IMG/VR virus record: IMGVR_UViG_2695420763_000018
Origin: a virus
Taxonomy: Duplodnaviria; Heunggongvirae; Uroviricota; Caudoviricetes
Direction: 5' to 3' (one strand)
Length of the DNA: 27,432 nt
The stretch's first letter is position 1. Each line of letters opens with the position of its first letter. This document shows, one piece after another, positions 645 to 20,761 of the stretch. Position numbers and translations under genes: made by a program. The notes beneath the pieces are model-generated. The model made no database searches. It was not told the origin of the DNA and saw only the letters and a list, made by a program, of their open reading frames with translations.

Positions 645-1955
645 TTAAATCCGAAGTGATGTGACTCTTCCGGTCGGTTTGACAATAGGGAATTGTTTAA
701 CGATGAAATAACCTCCGGCATCATTCGGGTGATCATTGCCAGATTTTTTATCAGGCTCCCCCTTCTCATCCCAGACCTGTTGCTCCAGAGATTCGGCATA
801 TAACGGGCAACGCTTCACATTAACTTTATAGCGACGCTCACCATTGGCATTGCAGAACATTGCATTCATTGAGTTAACGCGATCTTTTACTGGCGGGTTC
901 GAGCTGTTCACCACAACGTTAAAACCAGCCTGCTTAAGCTGGGCTATATCCGTCGTACTTGCGTTACTTGATTTTCTGGAATCCCCGGAAGCATCTGGAT
1001 AAATATAAATTTCCCTCACTTTCCGGTAATCATTCCCATCATACAGCCAGAAGCGTTCTTTAATGATGCGGATCATATCCGGCGTATCGTAGGCATTGAT
1101 GATTTCAGTTACCGCACATGGAAGCCCCAAACGCAGCACATGGACGATTCCCGCCATCTTTCCAACGTTAAAATCCATCCCAATATAAATCGGCTCCCCT
1201 GGCTGCTCCACTTCTTCGCAATTATTCAGTTTCCGGTCAAACTGATGGTAAACAGTACCACTTGTCAGGTTAGTAAACTGTCCTCGAAGATAGGCTTTAA
1301 TCAGCTCTGGAGGGTATGATTCAAGAAGCGAAGGAATGTAATCTGCTGGCAGGTTCTTTTCATTATCGAAAGTAGATGCCTGCACCAGACCATACAGTGA
1401 GGCCAGCTCTGTTTTTTCACGCACGGCTTTAACAAACTGCTCGTAGACAAATTTGAATCCTTCCGGCGTGGTTGTAACGTCAATACCGTTGCGAAGTCCA
1501 TCAATCTTATAACGCATACGTGCAATTATCTTGCGCCACGCCGTTCTGGCTTTTTCCTTCGGCAAAATGTCCAGTTCATCCACCAACGCATTACCAATTT
1601 TGAAACCGACGATCGTTTGTGGCTTCTCCATCGATCTGCAGATAGTGGTTCCCCGATACTGGCGTCCGTAATAAAAGTGAACCTCTTTATTTCCCTCATT
1701 AATTTTTACGTTCAATCCCCAGTCAGCAGCAACTTCTTCCACTGTAGGGTAAAAAATATCGCGAATTTGGGGATACGTTGGCGCAAAATATCCCTGATTT
1801 ATACCTGGATGCTCCCAAATCCCCTTGCATATGCCGCCACACCCAACCCATGTTTTGCCCGAGCCAAAACCAGCAATATAGGCTTTAAATTTATGGGGCA
1901 TTGAAAGAAATCGCGCCTGAGGCACATTAAGCGTCGGAGAGATCATCTTCATCAC
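645..1955 (-). CDS. terminase large subunit (ATPase/nuclease)
   Basis: 436-aa ORF with Walker A-like motif GFGSGKTW near the N-terminus and acidic motifs further on; overlaps the upstream small-subunit gene by about 29 nt. Exact start among the MMKM codons is uncertain. Confidence 0.8.
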   Translation of the reverse strand: MMKMISPTLNVPQARFLSMPHKFKAYIAGFGSGKTWVGCGGICKGIWEHPGINQGYFAPTYPQIRDIFYPTVEEVAADWGLNVKINEGNKEVHFYYGRQYRGTTICRSMEKPQTIVGFKIGNALVDELDILPKEKARTAWRKIIARMRYKIDGLRNGIDVTTTPEGFKFVYEQFVKAVREKTELASLYGLVQASTFDNEKNLPADYIPSLLESYPPELIKAYLRGQFTNLTSGTVYHQFDRKLNNCEEVEQPGEPIYIGMDFNVGKMAGIVHVLRLGLPCAVTEIINAYDTPDMIRIIKERFWLYDGNDYRKVREIYIYPDASGDSRKSSNASTTDIAQLKQAGFNVVVNSSNPPVKDRVNSMNAMFCNANGERRYKVNVKRCPLYAESLEQQVWDEKGEPDKKSGNDHPNDAGGYFIVKQFPIVKPTGRVTSLRI

Positions 1956-3021
1956 TCCTTACTCTGGCATCAACCACATTAATATTGATCGCCACAGGCT
2001 GGGGATGTTCATTATCTTCCACCGTTTCGATCTCTTTGCGCAGCTTCTGGTTTTCCATTCTGCGCCGTTCAATTTCCAGTTCCTGTAGCCGTTTATCTGC
2101 ACATAAAGCCCCGCCAGCAGAAAACAAACGCAACAATTCACGCCGGGCGGCAGCCTTATCCTCCAGCAGGATCTCAACGCCGAATTTTCCGAATTTTGCC
2201 CCTGCATATAATTGCCGCGCATCCCCATCAAGCAGAGTGGTATCAGCCATATAAAGCTGTCCCGTTCCCTCACCGCAGCACTTCGGGCAGTCCGGATTGG
2301 GTATGGCGTTATCAACAAAGCCGAGGCCTCCATATTCCGGTTCGGGTTTGCCATCTCTGGAAGCCTGCGCCGCTGCCTTGTCGAATTCTGCTATATCGCG
2401 CCACTGGTAGAGATGATTCTCGCCCCAGCAATAACGGCAGTTAACACGGCGAAATTGTGCAAGCTGATTGGGGTCGGCCAGGACAATAGCCATCAACTGA
2501 CTCACTAGTAAATCCAGGTCTGCGGTATAGCGTTTCTGGTACTGATTGCGGAAGTAGCTGATAGCGCGAAAAACCCTGGCATTTCTAAGCATACGACTGG
2601 CGTTGCTGTTAGCTGTCGCACCTTGCCCCTCATAACCGGCTAGTCGGTACGCCTCTGTCGGCTTTTTACCCTGAGCAACAAGCATCGCAAACTTAGCCTG
2701 CTGGTCAGAAATGCCGAATTCATCGGGACAGAACGAAAATTCCTCCGCGTCGCCCTCATTCAGGCCCGCATCGAATACTGGCTTTTTTTCCTGAGATTTT
2801 TCGTTCCGCTTTTGTGCAGTCTGCGCAGATTTTTTCTGCGCACTTTTTTGCGCAGTTTTGCACATTTCTGTCTGCGCATTTTTCGGAGTTTTTTTGATGT
2901 AACGACGGGCTGTTGCGTAATTCAGTCCCCTTGCTTCACACCATGCCACCGGAGATATACCGGAGCGGGTGTATTCAGCAATATACTCCTGCTGCAACGC
3001 CCCCCAGTCCGGTCTGCTCAT
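1927..3021 (-). CDS. terminase small subunit, unusually long (364 aa), with N-terminal HTH-like region and Cys-rich C-terminal region
   Basis: Central segment QQAKFAMLVAQGKKPTEAYRLAGYEGQGATANSNASRMLRN matches my recollection of the P27/Terminase_2 small-subunit signature; Cys cluster CRYCW...CPKCCGEG suggests a zinc ribbon; lies directly upstream of TerL. Confidence 0.6.
   Translation of the reverse strand: MSRPDWGALQQEYIAEYTRSGISPVAWCEARGLNYATARRYIKKTPKNAQTEMCKTAQKSAQKKSAQTAQKRNEKSQEKKPVFDAGLNEGDAEEFSFCPDEFGISDQQAKFAMLVAQGKKPTEAYRLAGYEGQGATANSNASRMLRNARVFRAISYFRNQYQKRYTADLDLLVSQLMAIVLADPNQLAQFRRVNCRYCWGENHLYQWRDIAEFDKAAAQASRDGKPEPEYGGLGFVDNAIPNPDCPKCCGEGTGQLYMADTTLLDGDARQLYAGAKFGKFGVEILLEDKAAARRELLRLFSAGGALCADKRLQELEIERRRMENQKLRKEIETVEDNEHPQPVAININVVDARVRSDEDDLSDA
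2813..2877. repeat. cluster of about six T-rich/GCGCA direct repeats inside the small terminase gene (candidate pac site)
   Basis: Plus strand reads tgtgcag, ctgcgcag, tctgcgcac, ttgcgcag, ttgcaca, tctgcgca within about 65 bp; encodes the low-complexity AQK-rich segment of TerS. Confidence 0.35.
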
Positions 3022-3024
3022 CAG

Positions 3025-3276
3025 TTAGTCCTGATTTTTATCCACCCTGAGTAGTTCGCGCAGAGCAAAGGCATCCCCTTTTCTGGCAAGCTTAAACAAT
3101 GCCGCTCGTAACTCGGCTTCACCCTTCGCTCTGCCCTTACGGATGGCCGCATAAAAATCTGTCATTGCTTCCCGATTTTCTTTCAGTCGGTTCAGATCAA
3201 CATCCAGAACGTCAGCGATTTGTTGTGCAGTCATCCGGCACGCTGCCAGAGACTCGACTTTCGAATACGGAATCAT
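3025..3276 (-). CDS. hypothetical small protein (83 aa), possible HTH DNA-binding protein
   Basis: ORF between the 402-aa gene and TerS; segment MTAQQIADVLDVDLNRL is HTH-like. Overlaps the stop of the upstream gene, so the start is uncertain. Confidence 0.4.
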   Translation of the reverse strand: MIPYSKVESLAACRMTAQQIADVLDVDLNRLKENREAMTDFYAAIRKGRAKGEAELRAALFKLARKGDAFALRELLRVDKNQD

Positions 3277-4420
3277 TTGTCACCCCCATTGATATGCAGG
3301 GTGTCTTCTTCCTGTATTTTTCGTGAAGGATTTTTACTGCAGCGTTGTTCCAGGTGACCTGATGGTGAATGCGTTTATGGCTGGCACCCATCAGTGAGAT
3401 TTTTACGCACGACGGCGCATACATGACGGAGTAAAAACTTTTAACGTAGGTTCCGGAATCCAAATACAGCTCGGTCATTCCGCCGCTGTTTTTCTGCGTC
3501 TGTTTCTGCCCTAACTGGACAGCACCGATCGTCATAAACAATTCACCACAGCGACCGAGATTCGTGTACGTATTCACATCCTCGTTAATGCGCCCCATGA
3601 ATGAGAACGGTCGATCAACCGAACAGATAAAGCTGTTCATTGCCTTGCGTTTCACCCACGAAGCATGGCCGCCATTGTCACCAAGAAAATCCCCGCCCTG
3701 CGACATAGCGATGGAAAGAGCAGGTATTGATTCGTAGTACGCCAGCATTTCAGAAAGGATCGCATCCAGTTTCCTTATCGGAAAATAGGCCTGGTCATAG
3801 TTGCGATCCACCCGAAACTGGAACTCGTGATAATCATCATCGAGCTGAATGAAGTATTTACACCCGACCAGTTTTGCCTGGTCGAAACAGGCATTACGGG
3901 CGTAAAAAATTGAGCGGCGGTCACAGAAATTATCGGCTTCGTCAAAACGACTGGCGATATCGGCTTTGGAAAACACCAGCACCTGTTCACCAAATTCAGC
4001 CATGTACTGATGCCGTGTCTTATCTTCATCATCAACAACGATAAAAATTTTCCCGGTATAGCCAGCACGACGCAACGTCCGGTAAGTCAGAACTTTGTCC
4101 GGTCGCCCGTGAGTCAGAATAAAGGCGCAAAAATCATCACGCATATTCTCCTCCTCACCACCATGCATGATCTCCACCATGCGCTGCGTCATCCGGACAA
4201 ATCCATTTTCAATAGCCTGCTGATAATCAATGATCACCAGCGCCGACTCCTCGAAAAAACACTGAATTTCAGCGGGGGCGTGAGCGTAATAGTCCGCAAT
4301 TCTGCTGAAATTAAACACCGTGTGACGTTCTGCCGCACACAGGAGGAATTTCTCAATATCAGGCTCAAGGGACGCCGAACGTATCCGGCTCCTCCTCATT
4401 TCCTGTACCGGGCAAAACAT
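3212..4420 (-). CDS. hypothetical protein with GT-A-like glycosyltransferase motif spacing (function unassigned)
   Basis: 402-aa ORF; segments THGRPDK, then VVDDED about 25 aa later, then QLDDDY about 55 aa later, resemble the GT-A nucleotide-sugar transferase pattern. No hydrophobic transmembrane-length segment seen. Start uncertain because the first 56 nt overlap the ParB-like gene. Confidence 0.5.
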   Translation of the reverse strand: MFCPVQEMRRSRIRSASLEPDIEKFLLCAAERHTVFNFSRIADYYAHAPAEIQCFFEESALVIIDYQQAIENGFVRMTQRMVEIMHGGEEENMRDDFCAFILTHGRPDKVLTYRTLRRAGYTGKIFIVVDDEDKTRHQYMAEFGEQVLVFSKADIASRFDEADNFCDRRSIFYARNACFDQAKLVGCKYFIQLDDDYHEFQFRVDRNYDQAYFPIRKLDAILSEMLAYYESIPALSIAMSQGGDFLGDNGGHASWVKRKAMNSFICSVDRPFSFMGRINEDVNTYTNLGRCGELFMTIGAVQLGQKQTQKNSGGMTELYLDSGTYVKSFYSVMYAPSCVKISLMGASHKRIHHQVTWNNAAVKILHEKYRKKTPCISMGVTNDSVFESRVSGSVPDDCTTNR

Positions 4421-4826
4421 CCGTCAACAGTTCATCAATTTCTGTCGGGATGAAGCCTGTCAGGGAGACATCAAAATCAGCATTGATTAGGTCCGACAGC
4501 TCCATCCGCAACAGATCTTCATCCCAGCCAGCATTCATCGGCAGGCGATTATCTGCCAGGCGGTACGCCTTTTTCTGCTCATCCGTCAGGCCAGACAGAA
4601 CAATGACCGGAACAGAATCCATTTTGAGCATTTCAGCCGCCATAACACGACCGTGACCCGCAATAATTTCGCCCTTTTCGTCAATCAGCACCGGATTAGT
4701 CCAGCCGAATTGCTTAATACTTTCTACCAGTTGTGCCACCTGCTCAGTACTGTGCGTCCTGGCGTTGTGCGCATTCGGTGACAATTCTTGTAATGGGCGA
4801 TAGACTATCTTTAATTTCTCGCTCAT
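4365..4826 (-). CDS. ParB-like nuclease-domain protein
   Basis: 153-aa ORF with ParB N-terminal-domain-like segment NPVLIDEKGEIIAGHGRVMAA. Sits at the position where I recall the short ynaK/ydaY remnants of K-12 Rac. Confidence 0.7.
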   Translation of the reverse strand: MSEKLKIVYRPLQELSPNAHNARTHSTEQVAQLVESIKQFGWTNPVLIDEKGEIIAGHGRVMAAEMLKMDSVPVIVLSGLTDEQKKAYRLADNRLPMNAGWDEDLLRMELSDLINADFDVSLTGFIPTEIDELLTDVLPGTGNEEEPDTFGVP

Positions 4827-4829
4827 ACA

Positions 4830-4867
4830 GCCTTGCTTTATGAATAAAACGCACCCCAGCAGCCAGT
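4830..4867 (-). terminator. candidate intrinsic terminator downstream of trkG
   Basis: Stem ccccag (4844-4849) pairs with ctgggg (4862-4867) around a 12-nt loop; on the minus strand it is followed by a U-rich run (plus-strand aataaaac at 4833-4840). Confidence 0.35.
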
Positions 4868-4963
4868 GCTACTGGGGACGGAGGTGTTGCTGGTAAAGTT
4901 AGGTATTGGATCAATGAGTGAGTCAACATAATATTAAACTCACAATTATAAATCAGCCATATA

Positions 4964-7832: not shown

Positions 7833-7858
7833 ATATAAAAAGCTCGCCGTAGCGAGCT
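7833..7858 (-). terminator. intrinsic terminator downstream of lipoprotein gene 1, upstream of the holin
   Basis: Stem agctcgc (7841-7847), loop cgta, stem gcgagct (7852-7858); on the minus strand followed by a U-run (plus-strand ataaaa 7835-7840). Confidence 0.6.
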
Positions 7859-7983
7859 AATAAAATGTATTTCTCTGATATTATGTTTATTTGTATTAGC
7901 TCAGACTTGACATCACAGGTTTCGTATATAGAACATCATCAAATCTGTCAGTTTGCTATGAATGAGATATAGTAATTGAAGAG

Positions 7984-8379
7984 CTAACCTCGCATGTCAA
8001 AGCCAGATTTCTGAAAATCTCTGTAGACTTCCGGATTGTTGAAGGCCGGAAATTTGGCTTTATGAGCTGCGGACTTTATCGCTTCGCAATAGGCTTTATC
8101 ACCGTTACTGGTAGATATTTTTAACGCCGTGCCATCCTGAGAGAATTCCATATGCAACCTGCATTTTTTCCCTTTCCAGTTATGCGGCTCATCAAGTTTG
8201 GCATTAATTGCAGCTCTGATTCCCCGCGCTTGCGCCCCCCATTCATCCTGATCATCCCAGCGTCCTGAACTGCAACTACCTGTAGCAGTAGTTTTGTGGC
8301 AATCTGAAGGGTGTAAAGGTGTGCATCCCGCAACAAAACCGACCCAAAAAGTCAACATAACGATTTTCTTTAATCCCAC
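7984..8379 (-). CDS. lipoprotein with TolA-domain-III-like C-terminal domain (paralogue 1)
   Basis: 131 aa; signal peptide with lipobox FVAGC; GTG start at 8379 preceded by GAGGAG at 6-nt spacing. C-terminal half aligns with paralogue 2 (GKxCxLxM...G..L......GD...C.EA..A...A..PA...PEVY..FQ). Confidence 0.7.
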   Translation of the reverse strand: MGLKKIVMLTFWVGFVAGCTPLHPSDCHKTTATGSCSSGRWDDQDEWGAQARGIRAAINAKLDEPHNWKGKKCRLHMEFSQDGTALKISTSNGDKAYCEAIKSAAHKAKFPAFNNPEVYRDFQKSGFDMRG

Positions 8380-8529
8380 TTCTTGCTCCTCAATCCATTA
8401 AAATCTCAGCAATAGTAGTTGTTACGTCCGCCACTGGCTCAGAGCTGACTATCCGCTAAATTTAGCTCAGTGCCGTAGCTGTGTCAGAACAAACCTAAGC
8501 CGAAACCGTTTATTACAAAACAATAAATA

Positions 8530-8958
8530 TCAGGGTTTAAAATCCAGCACCCCATTTTGAAATACTTTATATACTTCCGGCGAAGGGGGGGCAGGTATAT
8601 CAGCATTCTTTATCGCATTCATCGCTTCACGACATAAATCGAGGTCTCCACTTTCTCTTTTAACCTCCAGTAGAAGGCCATTCGGGGCCATATGCATTCT
8701 CAGTGTACACTCTTTTCCTGAATACTTACTCGCATCCCCGAACTGTTTTTCGATGGCGCTCTTGATTTGATGGGCATACAGACGGATATCCTCACTAACA
8801 TCAGAAGTACGTTCAGATGAACTCACATACTGTGTCTCTATTGCTTTATCGGAGTAATATGATGTACGGTCATGATAATTTGTCGATACAGCATCAGTGC
8901 ACCCGATAATAATCCCACTAATAATCAACGTAAGAATTGATGCGCTACGAAAACCCAT
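8530..8958 (-). CDS. lipoprotein with TolA-domain-III-like C-terminal domain (paralogue 2)
   Basis: 142 aa; lipobox IIIGC. C-terminal segment QIKSAIEKQFGDASKYSGKECTLRMHMAPNGLLLEVKRESGDLDLCREAMNAIKNADIPAPPSPEVYKVFQNGVLDFKP closely resembles the TolA C-terminus as I remember it. Confidence 0.75.
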   Translation of the reverse strand: MGFRSASILTLIISGIIIGCTDAVSTNYHDRTSYYSDKAIETQYVSSSERTSDVSEDIRLYAHQIKSAIEKQFGDASKYSGKECTLRMHMAPNGLLLEVKRESGDLDLCREAMNAIKNADIPAPPSPEVYKVFQNGVLDFKP

Positions 8959-9534
8959 TTTTCCTCACATATGTCATATAGTAAAGGATTATATATACCG
9001 TTGTTTTGGACGCTCAAACAGCGAATCAGATCAAATAAAACGCACATTTGTTAACATTTACACAAAGTCTGCGTGGGATATTCTGAAAGAATATCCATAA
9101 TGTGGAGAGAATCTATTGAAGTGCATGGTGCCGGGTGCCTCCCGGTGAACAAAATGTTCGTGATACCTGTCGGCGACAGAAAAGGTTAATGGTATCACCC
9201 CACCGCACAGGGGGATTCACCATGCAGGAGTTTTCTTAGCAAACTCACTGCGCGCCCGGCAACTCCCAACCACATAAAATGCGGAGTTTGTGGCATTTGT
9301 GCATATAACTCGCAGGAATTATCTTAAAAAACTGATGTCGATCCGGATTAAAAAGAAGCAGGTCATCATCAGATGACTGGAAAAAAGGAAAACAAAAAAT
9401 ACTCATCATACAGTTTTGATTGCAGGGATGAGCCTGCTATGCACAATATAAGCAAGATAAAAATATGCAGGCATATTATTTCGGATTTTGTTATTAACAC
9501 AACCTTTTTAATAATCATTTGGCATACAATAAAC

Positions 9535-9566
9535 CAGCCCAAAAAGAACCGCCTAAACAGGCGGTT
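9535..9566 (-). terminator. intrinsic terminator within the late-gene leader
   Basis: Stem aaccgcc (9547-9553) and ggcggtt (9560-9566) around a 6-nt loop; on the minus strand followed by CTTTTTGGG. Confidence 0.6.
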
Positions 9567-9918
9567 GGTCAATACAAAGGATGCTTCGTCTTTATTATAG
9601 TAATCTGAGGCGTCGGGTGTCTTGTATCAGACAACATATTGTCCCGCTAAACAGCGAATTACAAACCACCCGGCGATGATCTCTCATCTCATTTTATATG
9701 AGTTGACGACATCAGGATAACGCATCATCATCCCCTGCCAAGGAATATCAAAACTCCCGCCAGCAATGTGTTATCACAATATTGTAAAAAAAACACAGCA
9801 CCGAAACTATAACTGGTCTCTGTTATAGTTTGGGGTAGCGATAAAGGAGCTCAGGAGACCTTTCCCCACGAAAAAACGCCAGTGCTGCAAAACCAGAGCC
9901 TCATCCACGTCATCAGCC

Positions 9919-9949
<31 letters not shown>

Positions 9950-10445
9950 ACCCGCATATGGTACCAACTATCGCGCTCGAACAAATAAACTACTGATTAG
10001 ATTTCAAATCATGAGCCATACCGACTAAACCAGATCTACATTAGTTCTTCGTGTCAGCTCTAATCAAACAATAAAAGCCGCTCTCCCCGGAACTGGCACC
10101 GATACTAAAAAGGAAGAAAAGGCACTTCAATCGTAATAATCCGAAAGTGGTTCCAGTTAGGTTAACTTATTTCCTGAGTTACATTTTTTATTAAAACAAA
10201 CCGTCCTGAATTCCATCCACCATTTATTTCTGTCATTACAACAGGATAAAGAGCCTTAACCAAGATTCAGGCCGTGAAAACTGATAATATGCTAAAATAA
10301 TCATAACAAGCCGCAGGATAAACTAACAAGTCGTGTAAAAGATGTGTATTCTGCGCAAGTTACACGCCAATATGCGAATTCTCCACTTAAGCAAACAGAA
10401 AGACCAGTTGCCCAACTAGCAGCATTCTCCCCTGCTTTCCTGACG

Positions 10446-10476
10446 TAAAAAAACCGCATTAAGCGGTTTTTTTACG
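10446..10476. terminator. bidirectional intrinsic terminator about 80-110 nt downstream of Q (tR'-like)
   Basis: aaaaaaaccgc-attaa-gcggttttttt: GC stem flanked by A7 and T7 runs, so a hairpin plus U-tract forms on either strand. Confidence 0.7.
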
Positions 10477-10553
10477 ATGTCCATGTCTGCAATCCGCCTC
10501 GCGATACAGCTTTGCGAAGCATAGCAAAATTGAAGCAGTTTATACGTAAGAAA

Positions 10554-11096
10554 TCAAGCCATTTTCTCAGCAAATGATTCACGCATGGGAATATATAGGG
10601 CATACTCAGCAACAGCTAACCAATTAGCAATCCGTTTTTCGCATGTGCTAAAACACCACTCTGGGTGTGCATCATTTAGCAATTCAGCCATTTTACGCTT
10701 AGTCATCCCCCGCCCTTCATAGCGTTGCCGGAGAATGCAAATCAATCCTGGATGCTCTGCCAGCACCTCACTTATGACTCGATCAATACATAACGCCTCT
10801 GCATCAGTACAATGCGCCAGCCAGCTCTTTTGCTTGCCGTTGATCATCTCTCGCAAAAACGCTTCCAGCTCAGCTTTCTCTATTCCCGCTTTTTTCATTC
10901 TGCGCAGGGCTTCATTGATGGCTGTTTTCGTCAATTTTTTGGATGCCAACAACTGATTGAACATATTTCCTGACCTGCCACCGCCAATATACGACCAGCG
11001 CCCCCACATACGCAGTTTGCCCTGAATCCAGACACTTTCCAGCGTGGCGAGACGAAGGTGTTCTCCGCTTTTTCCTGTATTCGTTGGGTAAATCAC
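10554..11096 (-). CDS. late-gene antiterminator Q
   Basis: Segment LRMWGRW and downstream region resemble the Q-antiterminator family as I recall it. Proposed start is GTG at 11096 (codon 41 of the tracked ORF), preceded by AGGAGG at 7-nt spacing and overlapping the upstream TGA (GTGA). Confidence 0.65.
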   Translation of the reverse strand: MIYPTNTGKSGEHLRLATLESVWIQGKLRMWGRWSYIGGGRSGNMFNQLLASKKLTKTAINEALRRMKKAGIEKAELEAFLREMINGKQKSWLAHCTDAEALCIDRVISEVLAEHPGLICILRQRYEGRGMTKRKMAELLNDAHPEWCFSTCEKRIANWLAVAEYALYIPMRESFAEKMA

Positions 11097-11383
11097 AAAT
11101 ATCCCTCCTTTCTCCAGATTTCTTGTGTGCGAAAAACACCTTCTGCATGCATCAGGCGTAATTCTTCTTTGGTGTAATCGCTGGTTTTTACCCGCCCGTC
11201 GATTAGATCGTGGCATGAGCTACAGGCAATCGCCGCCTGCATATCGTGTGGTTTTGTCGCTGTTCCGCACGTTCCCGCCAGTCGGTAATGCGCCAGCACA
11301 GACGTTTCCGGATCGTGATTGCAGTAGCCAGGAATTCTGACGGTGCACATCTGCCCCCGCGCCGCTTTACGTAAATCCACCAT
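11093..11383 (-). CDS. YbcO-like (DUF1364) putative nuclease
   Basis: 96 aa with Cys/His cluster (CNHDPETSVLAHYR...CSSCHDLIDG); GGAG 8 nt upstream of ATG 11383; the ATG overlaps the TAA of the upstream gene (TAATG). Confidence 0.65.
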   Translation of the reverse strand: MVDLRKAARGQMCTVRIPGYCNHDPETSVLAHYRLAGTCGTATKPHDMQAAIACSSCHDLIDGRVKTSDYTKEELRLMHAEGVFRTQEIWRKEGYL

Positions 11384-11982
11384 TACGCAAACTCCAGCAG
11401 CTGCGCGGTCACATTTTCGACTTGTTCCGGAGAGGAAAATTTACGGAACAGAATCCAGTTCCACAGCACATTCAGAACAGATTTATAAACCTGCTGAAAC
11501 TCGGTTTCGTCCATATTCGCAAAAGCGATGGATTTCGCCCGACGCCCATGGCTACCATCAGGATAAAGATGCTCGGTGTAAAATCCGGCCTGAATGGTTA
11601 CCCACTCGCGGAAAGCCTCAAACGACTATAGCAATGCCGTATCCCGGGTTCTGCGTGTCGCAACTGTATTCAGATATTGCTCTGCGGCTTCGCTCAGAGC
11701 TGGCGTATGTTCCCGGCCTACTGATTCACATAGGTAATCAACGAATCCTGAAACCAGCTTTCGTTCGCGAGGCGTGATCGCCCCACCGACCGGAGTCCAG
11801 TAATCGAATCCCAGTTGCAGGAGTTTGAAAAAACGCTTGTGGAATGCGTAGTTACGCACACGCTTAAAGTCTGCGTGTATCCACTCGCCTATTTTGATTT
11901 GATGCAAAAAATCGCAACTCTCCGGCGTCGCCGGGAGAAGTAGTCCAGAAGAGGTTTGTTTGACCAGTTGTATATGCGCCAT
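11383..11982 (-). pseudogene. nin-region gene (possibly DUF1367-like) interrupted by an in-frame amber codon at 11626-11628
   Basis: The 118-codon ORF ends at TAG (11628-11626); the same frame then stays open for 80 more codons (SFEAFREWVTIQAGFYTEHLYPDGSHGRRAKSIAFANMDETEFQQ...LLEFA) and ends at TAA 11385-11383, which overlaps the next gene's ATG. Confidence 0.6.
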
Positions 11983-12260
11983 TTCTCAATCTCTCGATGG
12001 CGCAGTGCAGCAGATGCCAGTTGTTCAGGCTGACGAATAAAGTATAAATAAACTGGCTATGGTGTAAAGCTCCACATAACATGAACAAACACTACATATC
12101 AAATAGCTGATACAAGGATAGAAATACAACACTTATTATTAAAAACGATTAGATAAATTACATTTTAATGTTATGAAAAAGTTCTTTTTTATCATAACAT
12201 TTCAACAAAAGCATTACAGATGCACATCCCGTCATCATCAATTATTTAAGGTGGTTAAAC

Positions 12261-12347
12261 ATGGAAAATAACAACTATGCACATCTCGCTCCTTTTTTAT
12301 CCGTAATCCTTTTCGCTGGCTGTTTTATATGGGCATTATTTTTATAA
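12261..12347 (+). CDS. candidate small hydrophobic protein (28 aa)
   Basis: ATG at 12261 preceded by AAGGTGG at about 7-nt spacing; product MENNNYAHLAPFLSVILFAGCFIWALFL has a single TM-like segment. Lies in AT-rich intergenic DNA, so unproven. Confidence 0.25.
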   Translation: MENNNYAHLAPFLSVILFAGCFIWALFL

Positions 12348-12420
12348 AGTAGCCGCATGATTAGTTTCTGGAATCATGTTTCCCACTCAAATCATTAACA
12401 TTTGATAAGATATATCTAAA

Positions 12421-12482
12421 AGGATGCCTTTACATTATTTGATGCGTATATGATTTATTTATATGCACAGTAAAGGCATCCT
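12421..12482. repeat. perfect 13-bp inverted repeat separated by 36 bp
   Basis: aggatgcctttac (12421-12433) and gtaaaggcatcct (12470-12482) are exact reverse complements; spacer is AT-rich. Confidence 0.5.
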
Positions 12483-12794
12483 GGAAATAATCAAGATTAA
12501 TGATATATTGCTTATCTCATCCCCCACTGTCTTTCACCCGGAAAACATTTATCGTTAAAAATATATCATAAGTAATTAAATTGAAATTTCAGAACACAAC
12601 TAATGCACACAATAAGATTCAGTAACAGTAATCTATGCGGACTATATCGAGATTTTTTAGTTAAACTTTAATAAGTTATTCCTAACACACAGAATGCACA
12701 AACTAAAAGTAAAACAAATAGTTATACGAAAAACAACCATATTGATTCTATCTTCTCCTCTAATCAACATATCAATTATGTGTTTCATAACAGC

Positions 12795-12827
12795 TTGACA
12801 TAACCCTCAAAAAGGTGCATTTATAAT
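12795..12827 (+). promoter_or_regulatory. candidate promoter of the DUF1971 moron (consensus hexamers, non-canonical spacing)
   Basis: TTGACA at 12795-12800 and TATAAT at 12822-12827, both exact consensus but 21 bp apart instead of 17. Confidence 0.3.
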
Positions 12828-12849
12828 GCATGTTTTATGGGAGGTGGTT

Positions 12850-13191
12850 ATGACACACAAGAGAATTCCTAAAGACTGGGTAATCAAACGCTCAACTCCG
12901 TTCTTCACAAAAGAGAACGTACCTTCAGCGTTATTAACACATCATAATACAGCAGCAGGTGTTTTTGGACAGTTAAGCGTGATGGAAGGTACTGTAACAT
13001 ATTATGGTTTTGCTGATGAGAATGCTACTGAACCGGAGATAAAAGTAGTCATTAATGCTGGCGCTTTTGCAACAAGCCCACCACAATACTGGCACCGTAT
13101 TGAACTAAGCGATGATGCTCAGTTTAATATTAACTTTTGGGTAGCTCCAGACTTCTCAGGCGAAAAAGTCTATACCGCAAAAAAAAAATAG
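12850..13191 (+). CDS. DUF1971 (YeaR/TehB-N-terminal-like) protein
   Basis: Pattern RSTPF...GV.GQLSVMEGTVTYYGFADE..EPE.......AG.FA..PP..WH.IE..DD..FNI.F.VAPDF matches my recollection of E. coli YeaR; ATG 12850 preceded by GGAGGTGG. Confidence 0.65.
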   Translation: MTHKRIPKDWVIKRSTPFFTKENVPSALLTHHNTAAGVFGQLSVMEGTVTYYGFADENATEPEIKVVINAGAFATSPPQYWHRIELSDDAQFNINFWVAPDFSGEKVYTAKKK

Positions 13192-13273
13192 CCACGCTAT
13201 AAATATCTTATTAACTAGTCCCGGCGTGGTTCTTTCCCCGCTGGGTCTTTTACTCAGATTAGTAGTCTACGAA

Positions 13274-13399
13274 TCACAGCCTCCGTCTGCCAGTTCGGAT
13301 TCGTACCTCGCAGAGGTCTTTCCTCGTTACCAGTGCCGTCACTATGACGGTTAAACAGATGACGATCAGGGCGATTAACATCGCCTTTTGCTGCTTCAT
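13274..13399 (-). CDS. hok: Hok-family type I toxin homologue with divergent, shortened C-terminus (41 codons); possibly decayed
   Basis: Product MKQQKAMLIALIVICLTVIVTALVTRKDLCEVRIRTG matches the RelF/HokD N-terminal 37 residues as I recall them, then reads RRRL-stop where canonical Hok continues QTEVAVF...; AGGAG SD upstream; a 19-codon upstream ORF ends on ATGA at the hok start (mok-like coupling). Confidence 0.6.
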   Translation of the reverse strand: MKQQKAMLIALIVICLTVIVTALVTRKDLCEVRIRTGRRRL

Positions 13400-13921
13400 A
13401 GCCTGCTTCTCCTTGACCTTTCGGTCCGTAAGAGGCTAATCTCTATGTGTCGCATAGATATGGCCTCAGATTAATGTTAAACGTCTTGCAGGACGCGTAA
13501 TGTTAACTGGGGCTTTTCTCTATCTACCTTTGGTGTTCATGCCCGAGGCAGATAGCCTCAAGCACCCACAGCAATTCTAACTATCCAATACATCACTGCC
13601 AACACTTTAAACTCTTACCCTTTAAAACAAGAACAAAATTCAACCAATCAGCATTGGGCGTATACTCATATCCTAGAGAAAACAACTCTTTCTGTACTAT
13701 TTATATCCATATGATTTATAAGCATTTGCCACTTGCCATAGCCGCACAATGACAGTTTGCCATTTGATGTCAATAGATAAAAATGATCGTTTTCAATGAG
13801 TTACATACTTGCAAGGCGTTGCACATCAGGCCCGATTACGTCAGTATCAAAAGATTACAGATGGTGCATTACTGCCACCTCGCCTTAATGTTCCAGAACT
13901 CTCCAACTTGAGGAATTTTCA

Positions 13922-14695
13922 ATGACATCCTTTCAATTATCTTTGATTTCTCGTGAAATTGACGGCGAAATAATACATTTACGTGCCAAAGATGGTTACA
14001 TAAACGCCACATCAATGTGTAGAACTGCGGGCAAACTGCTCTCTGATTACACTAGACTCAAAACTACTCAAGAGTTTTTTGACGAATTATCACGCGATAT
14101 GGGAATTCCCATATCGGAGTTAATTCAATCATTTAAAGGTGGAAGACCTGAAAACCAAGGGACATGGGTGCATCCTGACATCGCTATTAATCTAGCGCAG
14201 TGGCTATCGCCCAAATTTGCAGTCCAGGTTTCAAGATGGGTTCGTGAATGGATGTCAGGGGAAAGAACTACAGCAGAAATGCCTGTACATTTAAAACGGT
14301 ACATGGTTAATCGTAGTAGAATTCCTCACACGCACTTTTCTATTCTTAATGAACTGACATTCAACTTGGTTGCACCTCTTGAACAAGCAGGGTACACACT
14401 CCCAGAAAAAATGGTTCCTGACATTTCACAAGGAAGAGTATTTTCACAATGGTTAAGAGATAATAGAAACGTAGAACCCAAAACATTCCCTACCTATGAC
14501 CATGAATATCCCGATGGTCGCGTATACCCTGCAAGGCTGTACCCAAATGAATATTTAGCAGATTTCAAAGAACATTTTAACAATATTTGGTTGCCGCAAT
14601 ATGCCCCGAAATACTTCGCTGACCGGGACAAAAAGGCTCTCGCCTTGATTGAAAAAATTATGCTACCTAACCTCGATGGCAATGAACAGTTCTAA
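13922..14695 (+). CDS. KilA-N domain protein with uncharacterised C-terminal domain
   Basis: N-terminal segment LISREIDGEIIHLRAKDGYINATSMCRTAGKLLSDY...PDIAINLAQWL is KilA-N-like; GAGGAA SD 7 nt upstream; transcribed opposite to its neighbours. Confidence 0.7.
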   Translation: MTSFQLSLISREIDGEIIHLRAKDGYINATSMCRTAGKLLSDYTRLKTTQEFFDELSRDMGIPISELIQSFKGGRPENQGTWVHPDIAINLAQWLSPKFAVQVSRWVREWMSGERTTAEMPVHLKRYMVNRSRIPHTHFSILNELTFNLVAPLEQAGYTLPEKMVPDISQGRVFSQWLRDNRNVEPKTFPTYDHEYPDGRVYPARLYPNEYLADFKEHFNNIWLPQYAPKYFADRDKKALALIEKIMLPNLDGNEQF

Positions 14696-19975: not shown

Positions 19976-20110
19976 ATGGTGCATTACGAAGTAGTTCAGT
20001 ATTTGATGGATTGTTGCGGTATCACTTACAACCAGGCTGTGCAGGCTTTACGCAGCAACGACTGGGATCTCTGGCAGGCAGAAGTCGCTATACGTAGCAA
20101 CAAGATGTGA
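19976..20110 (+). CDS. ydaG: small protein YdaG (44 aa)
   Basis: ATG 19976 preceded by GGGGAGAG; product MVHYEVVQYLMDCCGITYNQAVQALRSNDWDLWQAEVAIRSNKM; matches the length and position of K-12 ydaG. Not in the supplied ORF track (under 60 aa). Confidence 0.6.
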   Translation: MVHYEVVQYLMDCCGITYNQAVQALRSNDWDLWQAEVAIRSNKM

Positions 20111-20120
20111 GATTCGCAAA

Positions 20121-20276
20121 ATGCAAAAAATCGACCTCGGCAACAACGAATCCCTGGTGTGCGGCGTGTTCCCCAACCAGGATGGAACGTTCACTGCCAT
20201 GACGTATACCAAAAGCAAAACATTTAAAACCGAAACTGGTGCGCGCCGATGGTTGGAGAAGCACACAGTAAGCTAA
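20121..20276 (+). CDS. ydaF: small protein YdaF (51 aa)
   Basis: ATG 20121 begins 10 nt after the ydaG stop; product MQKIDLGNNESLVCGVFPNQDGTFTAMTYTKSKTFKTETGARRWLEKHTVS. Confidence 0.6.
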   Translation: MQKIDLGNNESLVCGVFPNQDGTFTAMTYTKSKTFKTETGARRWLEKHTVS

Positions 20277-20761
20277 CGATTAAAACGTCTACTCCTGCTG
20301 TTCCAGAATAACTTCATAAAATGGGAGTATTTTTCGGTGACGAGATAATAAGAACAGTTTGCGCTATCACTCTGATGTTGAATGATGCCCTTCCGTTCTA
20401 ATTTTTTCATAACCGGGTTACGGCAAGGAGAAGTGATAATAAGATTTCCTGTTTTAAGGAAATCTTTAAATACAGCGATTTCTTTCTCAGATAAACGAAG
20501 CAATACTCGTTGCTCTGGTAGTAATGAATAATGCTTTTGAATATGTGCTCGCAATCTTGAGAAGGAAATGGCGACCACGAAAGAAAAGGCAAAAACGATA
20601 ATCTGAAAGAGCCAAGGTATTTCAGTATAAGCATTGAATGCGACAGTAAACTCTTTCGGTATCAGCCAGAGAGTGAGACCAAAAATGATAATCGTATACA
20701 TAAGTCTTTCGAGTGGCTCGTTAGCAAAAAGTTTCAACAATGGAGTAAATACATCCAACAT
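20273..20761 (-). CDS. sieB: superinfection exclusion protein SieB
   Basis: Membrane protein; start placed at the internal ATG 20761 (162 aa) because the 41 codons upstream in the tracked ORF are not SieB-like; convergent 4-nt overlap with ydaF. Confidence 0.75.
   Translation of the reverse strand: MLDVFTPLLKLFANEPLERLMYTIIIFGLTLWLIPKEFTVAFNAYTEIPWLFQIIVFAFSFVVAISFSRLRAHIQKHYSLLPEQRVLLRLSEKEIAVFKDFLKTGNLIITSPCRNPVMKKLERKGIIQHQSDSANCSYYLVTEKYSHFMKLFWNSRSRRFNR

Follow-up and report, generated by a model that had tools for sequence, protein, structure and literature searches.

A decayed copy of a conserved ParB-glycosyltransferase gene pair at the head of the terminase genes of a Rac-like prophage, with a candidate role in DNA glycosylation

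What does a ParB-like protein do next to a glycosyltransferase (GT) at the head of phage packaging genes, and what does the enzyme glycosylate? The question is raised by a Rac-like prophage of Escherichia coli carried on a 27,432-nucleotide (nt) stretch of viral DNA (IMG/VR record IMGVR_UViG_2695420763_000018), the whole of which is here called the window and which is 99.4 to 99.8% identical to related Rac-like prophages. A first-pass annotation of the window described two genes that overlap by 56 nt as if co-translated, the first for a ParB-like nuclease-domain protein and the second for a GT-A-like protein of 402 amino acids (aa), immediately upstream of the terminase genes. The position was correct, as TerS and TerL, identified by Pfam and PHROG, are encoded directly downstream. 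The two open reading frames (ORFs) are indeed open on the minus strand, encoding 153 aa (positions 4365 to 4826) and 402 aa (positions 3212 to 4420), but the native gene structure is different.

PHROG analysis divided the 402-aa ORF into two parts. Residues 14 to 81 matched positions 154 to 217 of phrog_620, a 217-position ParB family of which the 153-aa ORF covers positions 3 to 147, and residues 93 to 390 matched a GT family from position 1. A C-terminal remnant of ParB makes up residues 14 to 92 of the 402-aa ORF (approximately ParB residues 180 to 260; positions 4145 to 4381, minus strand). Moreover, tblastn within the window found ParB residues 1 to 149 in one frame and residues 180 to 260 in another, which is the frame of the GT. 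The native arrangement is annotated in phage vB_EcoS-473R12, in which a 263-aa ParB gene and a 310-aa GT gene overlap by 8 nt (ATG..TGA), and E. coli KN12-1 encodes the same 310-aa GT together with a 263-aa ParB ORF that was also intact by tblastn.

Alignment to relatives that are at least 99% identical, including vB_EcoS-473R12 and KN12-1, indicated two lesions in the window. The first is a loss of 101 nt inside parB, which is bounded by copies of an AGCCG(T/G)ATACG microhomology and has its junction in AGCCG at positions 4386 to 4391. The loss takes out ParB residues ~150 to 179, which hold a conserved motif, and shifts the frame such that ParB ends after 153 codons. The second is the loss of 1 nt from a GAGGAGGAGG run just ahead of the GT start codon (alignment column 785), as a result of which the stranded ParB C terminus falls in frame with the GT. 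The resulting run, GAGGAGGAG (positions 4146 to 4156, minus strand), falls one nucleotide short of its length in every relative and is the strong Shine-Dalgarno sequence that precedes the native GT start at 4144. Given the domain split, the deletions relative to close relatives, and the intact ParB of all other loci examined, the real GT gene occupies positions 3212 to 4144 on the minus strand (310 aa; 933 nt as annotated in relatives).

Both lesions appear to be private to this strain. A single-frame ParB of ~263 aa was detected by tblastn in 90 of the 90 related loci available at that stage, and the split was seen in the window only. When a 121-nt query spanning the junction was used, the best-ranked complete E. 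coli genomes matched in two pieces spanning 222 nt. In a collection of 15 billion proteins, the exact 310-aa GT occurs on at least 1,000 contigs, and the exact 153-aa and 402-aa proteins occur on only 1 to 2 contigs (CTV84198.1 and CTV84149.1). The earlier gene model could still be right if the 153-aa and 402-aa proteins were genuine and co-translated, or if the fusion of the ParB C-terminal domain (CTD) to the GT were a functional novelty; both ORFs are open, the losses of 101 and 1 nt sum to 102 nt, a multiple of three that brought remnant and GT in frame together, and one natural fusion of a GT of this family to ParB is known elsewhere (P0308). We consider that model highly improbable, however, as the in-frame CTD-GT fusion was found in 0 of 249 related loci, the two proteins are confined to the 1 to 2 contigs given above, and no Shine-Dalgarno sequence precedes the ATGs further upstream, at 4420 and 4399, in contrast to the native start with its GAGGAGGAG. 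The conserved ParB motif is also deleted, and the ParB fragment carries an additional substitution, Y18N, of a residue that at least 90% of family members keep.

A programmed frameshift at the parB/GT overlap was ruled out, as the frame change coincides with a 101-nt deletion absent from every relative. Sequencing error is an unlikely cause of a 101-nt loss between microhomologies, and the 1-nt loss within the GAG repeat could in principle be one. We conclude from the alignments that the 402-aa ORF is chimeric and arose through two strain-specific deletions, that its length and the 56-nt overlap are outcomes of those deletions rather than signs of co-translation, and that the native pair is a 263-aa ParB and a 310-aa GT overlapping by 8 nt. 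The 153-aa fragment keeps the nucleotide-binding domain (NBD) and a helical pair, and the GT is probably still made from its own ribosome-binding site in the source strain. As the partner has been destroyed, with the NBD detached and the motif deleted, the window copy of the module is most likely inactive, and as a broken copy it is of little functional interest in itself. The structural claims made here, on gene structures, folds, pairing, and lesions, we hold with near certainty.

The Rac prophage of E. coli K-12 was proposed in the first-pass annotation to keep fragments of this region as ynaK and ydaY, which is correct for ynaK only. The ynaK gene (264 nt, 87 aa) is an N-terminal ParB stump at the same position after trkG, and the K-12 match ends 328 nt into the query. 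By contrast, YdaY has no similarity to the 402-aa ORF (E = 63), and its 98% identical counterpart in a full-length relative is encoded after the tail-tube gene; ydaY adjoins ynaK in K-12 because of a large Rac deletion. K-12 Rac has lost the remainder of ParB together with the GT and the genes for terminase, head, and tail tube. A literature search on ynaK and ydaY found nothing functional.

Two further observations concern the ParB gene in E. coli. First, in many of the proteins P0193 to P0235, an N-terminal portion of ParB (~160 residues) is joined to the product of an unrelated downstream phage gene (Lom, a TerL C-terminal domain, a tail-fibre assembly protein, or NlpC/P60), and parB appears to be a recurrent deletion end point in decaying Rac-like prophages, K-12 ynaK included. 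Second, PGAP labels the ParB gene of KN12-1 (locus L001, positions 3575 to 3832) and NCTC9699 (locus L003, positions 20075 to 20332) as a 258-nt "ynaK" pseudogene "missing C-terminus," although tblastn aligned residues 1 to 264 in a single frame in both, so that the 263-aa ORF is intact. The pseudogene calls are probably an annotation artifact of using the truncated K-12 YnaK as the reference.

The second protein of the pair is a member of a known GT family. Residues 100 to 314 of the 402-aa ORF matched PF20691 ("TET-associated glycosyltransferase," TAGT) at 119.3 bits against a cutoff of 27.5 (E = 2.9e-34), the match to phrog_842 (1.3e-103) started at residue 93, and NCBI names the E. coli protein "GREB1-related protein." The motifs on which the GT-A proposal had been based (THGRPDK, VVDDED, and QLDDDY) are present and align to invariant positions of the family. 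Among 29 homologues of 60 to 99% identity, R14, D38/D41, D68-E69, D102-D103-D104, and E188-D189 were invariant, together with others, and the third motif is EDV with an invariant Y193 three residues further. These residues fit the R...DDD...ED(Y/F) signature that was reported for phage GT-A DNA glycosyltransferases with experimentally shown activity (Pyle et al., bioRxiv 10.1101/2023.12.21.572611).

Structure prediction, which had been suggested as a check, gave a GT-A fold. The AlphaFold2 (AF2) model of the GT had a predicted local distance difference test (pLDDT) value of 71.5, with the N-terminal 150 residues mostly >90, and a predicted template modeling (TM) score of 0.72. Foldseek matched it to SunS, SpsA, ColGalT1, TarS, K4CP, and glycogenin in the PDB (E ~5e-5; TM score 0.35 to 0.42); nearly all top PDB matches were GT-A glycosyltransferases, and a few were ADP-glucose pyrophosphorylase chains. 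The best viral structure matches were phage TAGT-domain proteins in BFVD (E = 1e-22; TM score 0.68). A sequence-profile search of the PDB with the GT found no relatives, and no model in NCBIfam or PADLOC matched it. The protein also lacks a membrane segment, as had been noted, with a maximum Kyte-Doolittle mean of 1.08 over 19 residues. Unlike the Gtr seroconversion enzymes, which are membrane-embedded, accompanied by GtrA/GtrB, and encoded next to the attachment site, it is soluble and encoded in a late operon, and no GtrA/B neighbor was found in the full-length relative prophage. We conclude from profile matches and the structure model that the GT in the window is intact, retains every invariant residue of the family, and is a soluble GT-A-fold enzyme of the TAGT family.

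The TAGT family includes the T2/T6 beta-glucosyl-hydroxymethylcytosine (HMC)-alpha-glucosyltransferase and the GT-A enzymes of phage C5-methyltransferase/TET 5mYOX clusters, with which the window GT shares Pfam/PHROG membership, the GT-A fold, the R...DDD...ED residues, phage origin, and solubility. It differs in having an obligate ParB-module partner and in lacking a hydroxymethylcytosine/hydroxymethyluracil pathway and an alpha/beta-GT alongside. The PHROG/RefSeq label "T2/T6 beta-glucosyl-HMC-alpha-glucosyltransferase" was rejected as a family-level transfer, as neither the HMC pathway nor an alpha-GT is present in the full-length relative prophage; moreover, tblastn against 50,697 phage records (E ≤ 1e-3) found no T2/T6 match, and the nearest T4-like sequences, from Aeromonas phages, were 22 to 24% identical. 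By its sequence and surroundings, the window GT belongs with the "solitary TAGT" group, which comprises 288 of 753 GT-bearing phage genomes and whose function was stated to be undefined (PMC13216743). A paper on 5-hydroxycytosine glycosylation does not mention the ParB-TAGT family. GREB1, of the same Pfam family, is a 1949-aa multidomain cytoplasmic protein that O-GlcNAcylates estrogen receptor alpha (PMC7968844); it differs in having neither a ParB partner nor a phage context.

The first protein had been described as ParB-like with a nuclease domain. The ParB_N domain (PF02195) is present in the window at 32.4 bits (cutoff, 26.3), but the ORF that was taken for the gene is only the N-terminal fragment of the 263-aa gene. 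In the model of the intact ParB (pLDDT of 65), an NBD of the ParB/Srx fold (residues 1 to 95) is followed by helices (103 to 134), a low-confidence segment (136 to 165), and a helical CTD (166 to 255), and no helix-turn-helix (HTH) DNA-binding domain was found. The P-motif GHGR and box III RxADN are invariant in the family alignment, and the nearest structures by Foldseek were Noc, Myxococcus xanthus ParB-CTPgS, PadC, Bacillus subtilis ParB-CDP, Caulobacter crescentus ParB, and KorB. The N-terminal 144 residues are homologous to the N terminus of ParB-methyltransferase fusions (PADLOC, 1.5e-38; phrog_498). The NBD-linker-CTD architecture of ParB CTPases is complete in intact relatives and broken in the window, where the NBD is split from the CTD and the linker motif is gone. 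Canonical ParABS ParB proteins have an HTH and a ParA and score above the TIGR00180 cutoff; the window family has no HTH, ParA was not found in the window or in the full-length relative prophage, and the TIGR00180 score was 38.1 bits, below the cutoff of 58.45. One lead, Gifsy-1 STM14_3218-3220, proved to be unrelated, as it concerns a ParA-like ATPase in an immunity region.

The linker of the ParB-like protein is itself conserved. The motif PYT.KI.TP.YEP...P.vsELyD..K is near-invariant from E. coli to viruses of Lactobacillus, Nocardia, and Haloarcula, places the near-invariant residues Y148, T/S149, and Y157 within a stretch of predicted disorder, and is exactly what the 101-nt deletion removes from the window. 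No Pfam family was found for the unit formed by the motif and the CTD, and a sequence-profile search of the PDB found no relatives of it. A profile of this motif+CTD module retrieved 1,264 cluster representatives (50% clustering) from 1.84 billion proteins. Among the 150 best matches listed, most proteins were 250 to 300 aa long and some were stand-alone modules; the module was almost always C-terminal, with one exception (P0314) in which ~120 residues follow it.

The first-pass annotation had proposed a survey of how often the two genes occur together across prophages, and the pairing is conserved. The survey covered 249 loci, drawn from isolate phages and from IMG/VR contigs that had been retrieved with the GTs of E. 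coli, Lactobacillus, and haloviral origin as queries. ParB lies directly upstream of the GT for 222 of the 231 GT ORFs with enough upstream sequence. When separate profiles were used, the motif+CTD module was directly upstream of the GT domain in 219 of 226 cases, with the 7 exceptions being second tandem GT copies, and the ParB NBD was detected in 207 of 226. Approximately nine loci encode a stand-alone module of 121 to 156 aa without an NBD, and in the Vibrio jumbo phage pv27 a 139-aa protein before the GT aligned only to the motif+CTD (hhalign E = 1.4e-37, 50% identity). In addition, P0308 is a natural single-chain fusion of TAGT, ParB NBD, and module. The 8-nt overlap of the GT start with the ParB stop further suggests translational coupling. 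We conclude, on the evidence of these profiles, that the constant partner of the GT is the acidic motif+CTD module rather than the ParB NBD.

Some loci carry tandem TAGT paralogues around one ParB module (L004 to L006, L102, L107, L108, and L112). Both GTs follow the module in most of them, and in L108 one GT precedes the module gene. The arrangement resembles the sequential GTs that build disaccharides in TET-linked pathways, and it would fit glycan extension on either a DNA or a protein acceptor and so does not discriminate between them.

The pair is widespread. In phages of Proteobacteria, Firmicutes, Actinobacteria, and Bacteroidota and in a haloarchaeal virus, it stands at the start of the terminase gene block; the order ParB, GT, terminase recurs in Lactobacillus phages phi jlb1 and c5, Nocardia phage NTR1, a Porphyromonas phage, and haloarchaeal HHTV-2, and the pair is 40 to 47% identical across viruses of Gram-negative, Gram-positive, and archaeal hosts. 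Of 5,426 complete E. coli genomes, 874 (about one in six) carry it intact or nearly so, and relatives occur in only 42 of the 50,697 phage records (tblastn, E ≤ 1e-3).

Neighbor analysis of 85 non-redundant loci indicated that the recurrent neighbors are all downstream, namely, a TerS-like HTH protein (phrog_309), TerS, TerL, portal, and MuF, and that upstream genes are not conserved. The gene order survives where TerS is ~40% identical or TerL is of another type. A co-directional block of ParB, a modification-type enzyme, and terminase, the order by which ParB-Tls loci are recognized, is present in the window and in most of the 85 loci. Module loci without an NBD sit instead with replication genes for PolA, beta-clamp, DnaB, a DnaD-like protein, and primase. 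Judged by gene content, the common denominator of these contexts is DNA-transaction machinery and not a particular virion protein or the host envelope.

The closest functional precedents are ParB-type proteins encoded beside DNA-modifying enzymes. That ParB-like proteins are recurrent partners of such phage enzymes, as the first-pass annotation had noted, is documented (PMC4738411, PMC8256090, PMC13229309, and PMC12704722). ParB176, the partner of 5mYOX176 (O'Toole et al. 2026, PMC13229309), shares with the window family, when compared by described architecture, an NBD, short helices, a disordered linker, a CTD, and the lack of an HTH. It is likewise encoded beside a DNA-modifying enzyme, often near terminase, and its nearest structures are MxParB and CcParB. 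The partner of ParB176 is a dioxygenase rather than a glycosyltransferase, and the window family, unlike ParB176, has a near-invariant linker motif and a motif+CTD that can stand alone. ParB176 activates its cognate phage thymine dioxygenase on double-stranded DNA, and a form that lacks the NBD or the CTD no longer activates it (PMC13229309). ParB-Tls loci have the same order of ParB, modification enzyme, and terminase and are predicted to modify DNA during packaging (Iyer et al. 2013, as cited in PMC4738411 and PMC8256090). The ParB N-terminal module of the window family is homologous to that of ParB-methyltransferase fusions, and its payload differs in being a GT without a precursor-making enzyme.

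One way in which the pair could work is as a DNA-glycosylating complex. Late in infection, the GT would be bound and activated by its ParB-type partner and would move a sugar from a nucleotide-sugar, at the DDD metal site, onto phage DNA after replication or during packaging, with shielding of that DNA from host nucleases as the likely benefit. The activation step is modeled by analogy on the switching on of the thymine dioxygenase by ParB176. Work in a complex is suggested by the adjacency of the genes, their 8-nt overlap, the Rosetta-stone fusion P0308, and the ParB176 precedent. We lean, with modest assurance, toward the explanation that the window holds a decayed copy of a conserved two-gene module for partner-assisted DNA glycosylation around packaging; DNA as the target, taken by itself, we place a little short of an even chance.

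Several points weigh against that explanation, and its weak point is the acceptor. We know of no obvious O-nucleophile in canonical DNA. The TAGT-type enzymes that have been characterized require, as acceptor, either a hydroxymethyl base or a sugar already in place, and neither is made here. No dioxygenase, hydroxymethylase-type thymidylate synthase, C5-methyltransferase, or alpha/beta-GT was found in the window, in the full-length relative prophage, in the complete c5 and phi jlb1 genomes, or among the recurrent neighbors of the 85 non-redundant loci. Neither protein resembles a generic DNA binder, as the partner and module are strongly acidic (isoelectric point, ~4.3 to 4.9) and the isoelectric point of the GT is variable (5.4 to 9.2); these values did not separate DNA from protein targets. 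The models are moderate in confidence (pLDDT of 71.5 for the GT and 65 for ParB), and no experiments on this ParB-TAGT clade were found in the literature. Finally, eukaryotic GREB1, with its TAGT domain, glycosylates a protein (PMC7968844). One side observation touches on acceptor synthesis: three environmental viral contigs encode a radical SAM protein directly beside the GT or the module. Its gene comes after the GT(s) in L106 (positions 7843 to 8796) and L107 (8709 to 9659) and before the module gene in L211 (3385 to 4236), and the protein could be a candidate maker of an acceptor group in those viruses.

A different reading does without a precursor. The pair could glycosylate without any hydroxymethyl-pyrimidine, either by modifying canonical phage DNA directly or by modifying its own acidic partner module to yield a glycoprotein that acts on packaging, replication, or host defenses, and the core of the pair would then be the undescribed ~110-aa motif+CTD module rather than the ParB domain. 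Taken jointly, we regard these propositions as doubtful but worth keeping in view; if they were true, precursor-free glycosylation of DNA or of the partner would be a previously uncharacterized modification chemistry.

The main rival, which we consider fairly improbable, is that the GT glycosylates a protein and not DNA, the likeliest being its own partner at the Tyr/Thr residues of the disordered motif, or another DNA-transaction protein; once glycosylated, the acidic protein would have its role in packaging, replication, or counter-defense. The module is the sole universal partner of the GT and is very acidic, and the near-invariant Y148, T/S149, and Y157 lie in a disordered segment, as expected of a docking or modification site. 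Glycogenin, a GT-A enzyme that self-glucosylates a tyrosine, is among the fold matches. A source of hydroxylated bases was not found in the relative prophage, c5, phi jlb1, or the recurrent neighbors, and the TAGT domain of GREB1 O-GlcNAcylates a protein (PMC7968844). Set against these points, all characterized prokaryotic, viral, and kinetoplastid relatives act on DNA, and the N-terminal ParB module is held in common with DNA methyltransferase fusions.

The remaining explanations sever the ParB-like protein from the GT. The ParB-like protein might serve terminase in cos/pac processing, as a nuclease or by recognizing sites, or might act in partition as on plasmids, in either case independently of the GT, as it adjoins the terminase genes in most loci and the family was historically annotated "ParB-like nuclease." We consider this very improbable, as neither ParA nor an HTH domain was found, the TIGR00180 score was 38 bits against a cutoff of 58, a GT follows ParB in every locus, the NBD-less module persists beside replication genes, and the pair is missing from most lambdoid phages with the same terminase types (relatives in 42 of the 50,697 phage records). 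Least probable of all is a lysogenic-conversion GT that decorates a host envelope polymer in the manner of Gtr or TarP with ParB merely adjacent: the teichoic-acid GT TarS is among the fold matches, the phage GT-A enzymes of Pyle et al. (bioRxiv 10.1101/2023.12.21.572611) had TarP as their best PDB match, and the neighboring trkG is a moron, but no membrane segment is predicted, no GtrA/B or flippase was found nearby, the pair is 40 to 47% identical in viruses whose hosts share no envelope polymer, the GT is strictly coupled to the ParB module, and the gene is in a late packaging operon rather than a lysogeny-expressed position.

Partner-assisted glycosylation of DNA is our best guess, and the E. 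coli version is one instance of a strictly paired, very widespread module. The TAGT family, its GT-A fold, the ParB/terminase link, and solitary TAGTs are already in the literature, and computational work has described the module; a possible novelty is that the partner which never varies is a motif+CTD module able to dispense with the ParB domain. As intact copies abound in a host as tractable to test as E. coli, the substrate of a TET-less TAGT and the contribution of the ParB-type partner are directly testable. The outcome matters for phage anti-restriction, for the new roles of the ParB-CTPase fold, and for annotating ynaK-type genes correctly.

The pair is part of a lambdoid late operon on the minus strand of the window. 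The operon runs from a Q-like gene at its head (positions 10554 to 11216) through two ORFs with TolA C-terminal domains and the holin/lysozyme/Rz lysis cassette (7789 to 6559) to trkG (6439 to 4964), a potassium transporter moron between the lysis cassette and parB, and continues with the parB fragment, the GT, an 83-aa ORF, TerS (364 aa; 1927 to 3021; Pfam Terminase_2, phrog_51), TerL (436 aa; 645 to 1955; Pfam Terminase_6N and Terminase_6C), and the beginning of the portal gene. By inference, the ParB-GT pair would belong to a Q-antiterminated late transcript. A consensus scan, as a pattern match only, indicated a terminator-like hairpin between trkG and parB (positions 4854 to 4877, minus strand; 10-bp stem, 7 G-C pairs, T-rich tail), 28 nt ahead of the parB start.

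The small ORF after the GT (positions 3025 to 3276, minus strand; 83 aa as the longest ORF, 69 aa as annotated in relatives) matched phrog_309, a small-terminase family of 319 positions, over its central HTH part alone (positions 145 to 218; 8e-23). It co-travels with ParB-GT in enterobacterial loci, where it follows the GT at 60 to 100% identity, and stays with the pair even where the main TerS drops to ~40% identity. The commonest +1 neighbor among the 85 non-redundant loci is a 134-aa protein related to it. The small ORF may encode a separate DNA-recognition subunit.

Other observations concern features around the pair. In L050, L051, and L052, the TerL match (about 9190 to 11508) is broken after residue 31 by ~1 kb in the same frame, which suggests an intein, intron, or homing-endonuclease insertion. 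In the window, trkG has a low G+C content (0.37 to 0.42, against ~0.49 in its flanks). The two TolA C-terminal ORFs (7984 to 8379, 131 aa, and 8530 to 8958, 142 aa) are neighbors directly upstream of holin and may encode phage TolA mimics. Further along, a G+C island of 0.32 at positions 12000 to 13500 contains a plus-strand DUF1971 ORF (12826 to 13191), opposite in direction to the surrounding phage genes, and a KilA-N ORF lies at positions 13922 to 14695.

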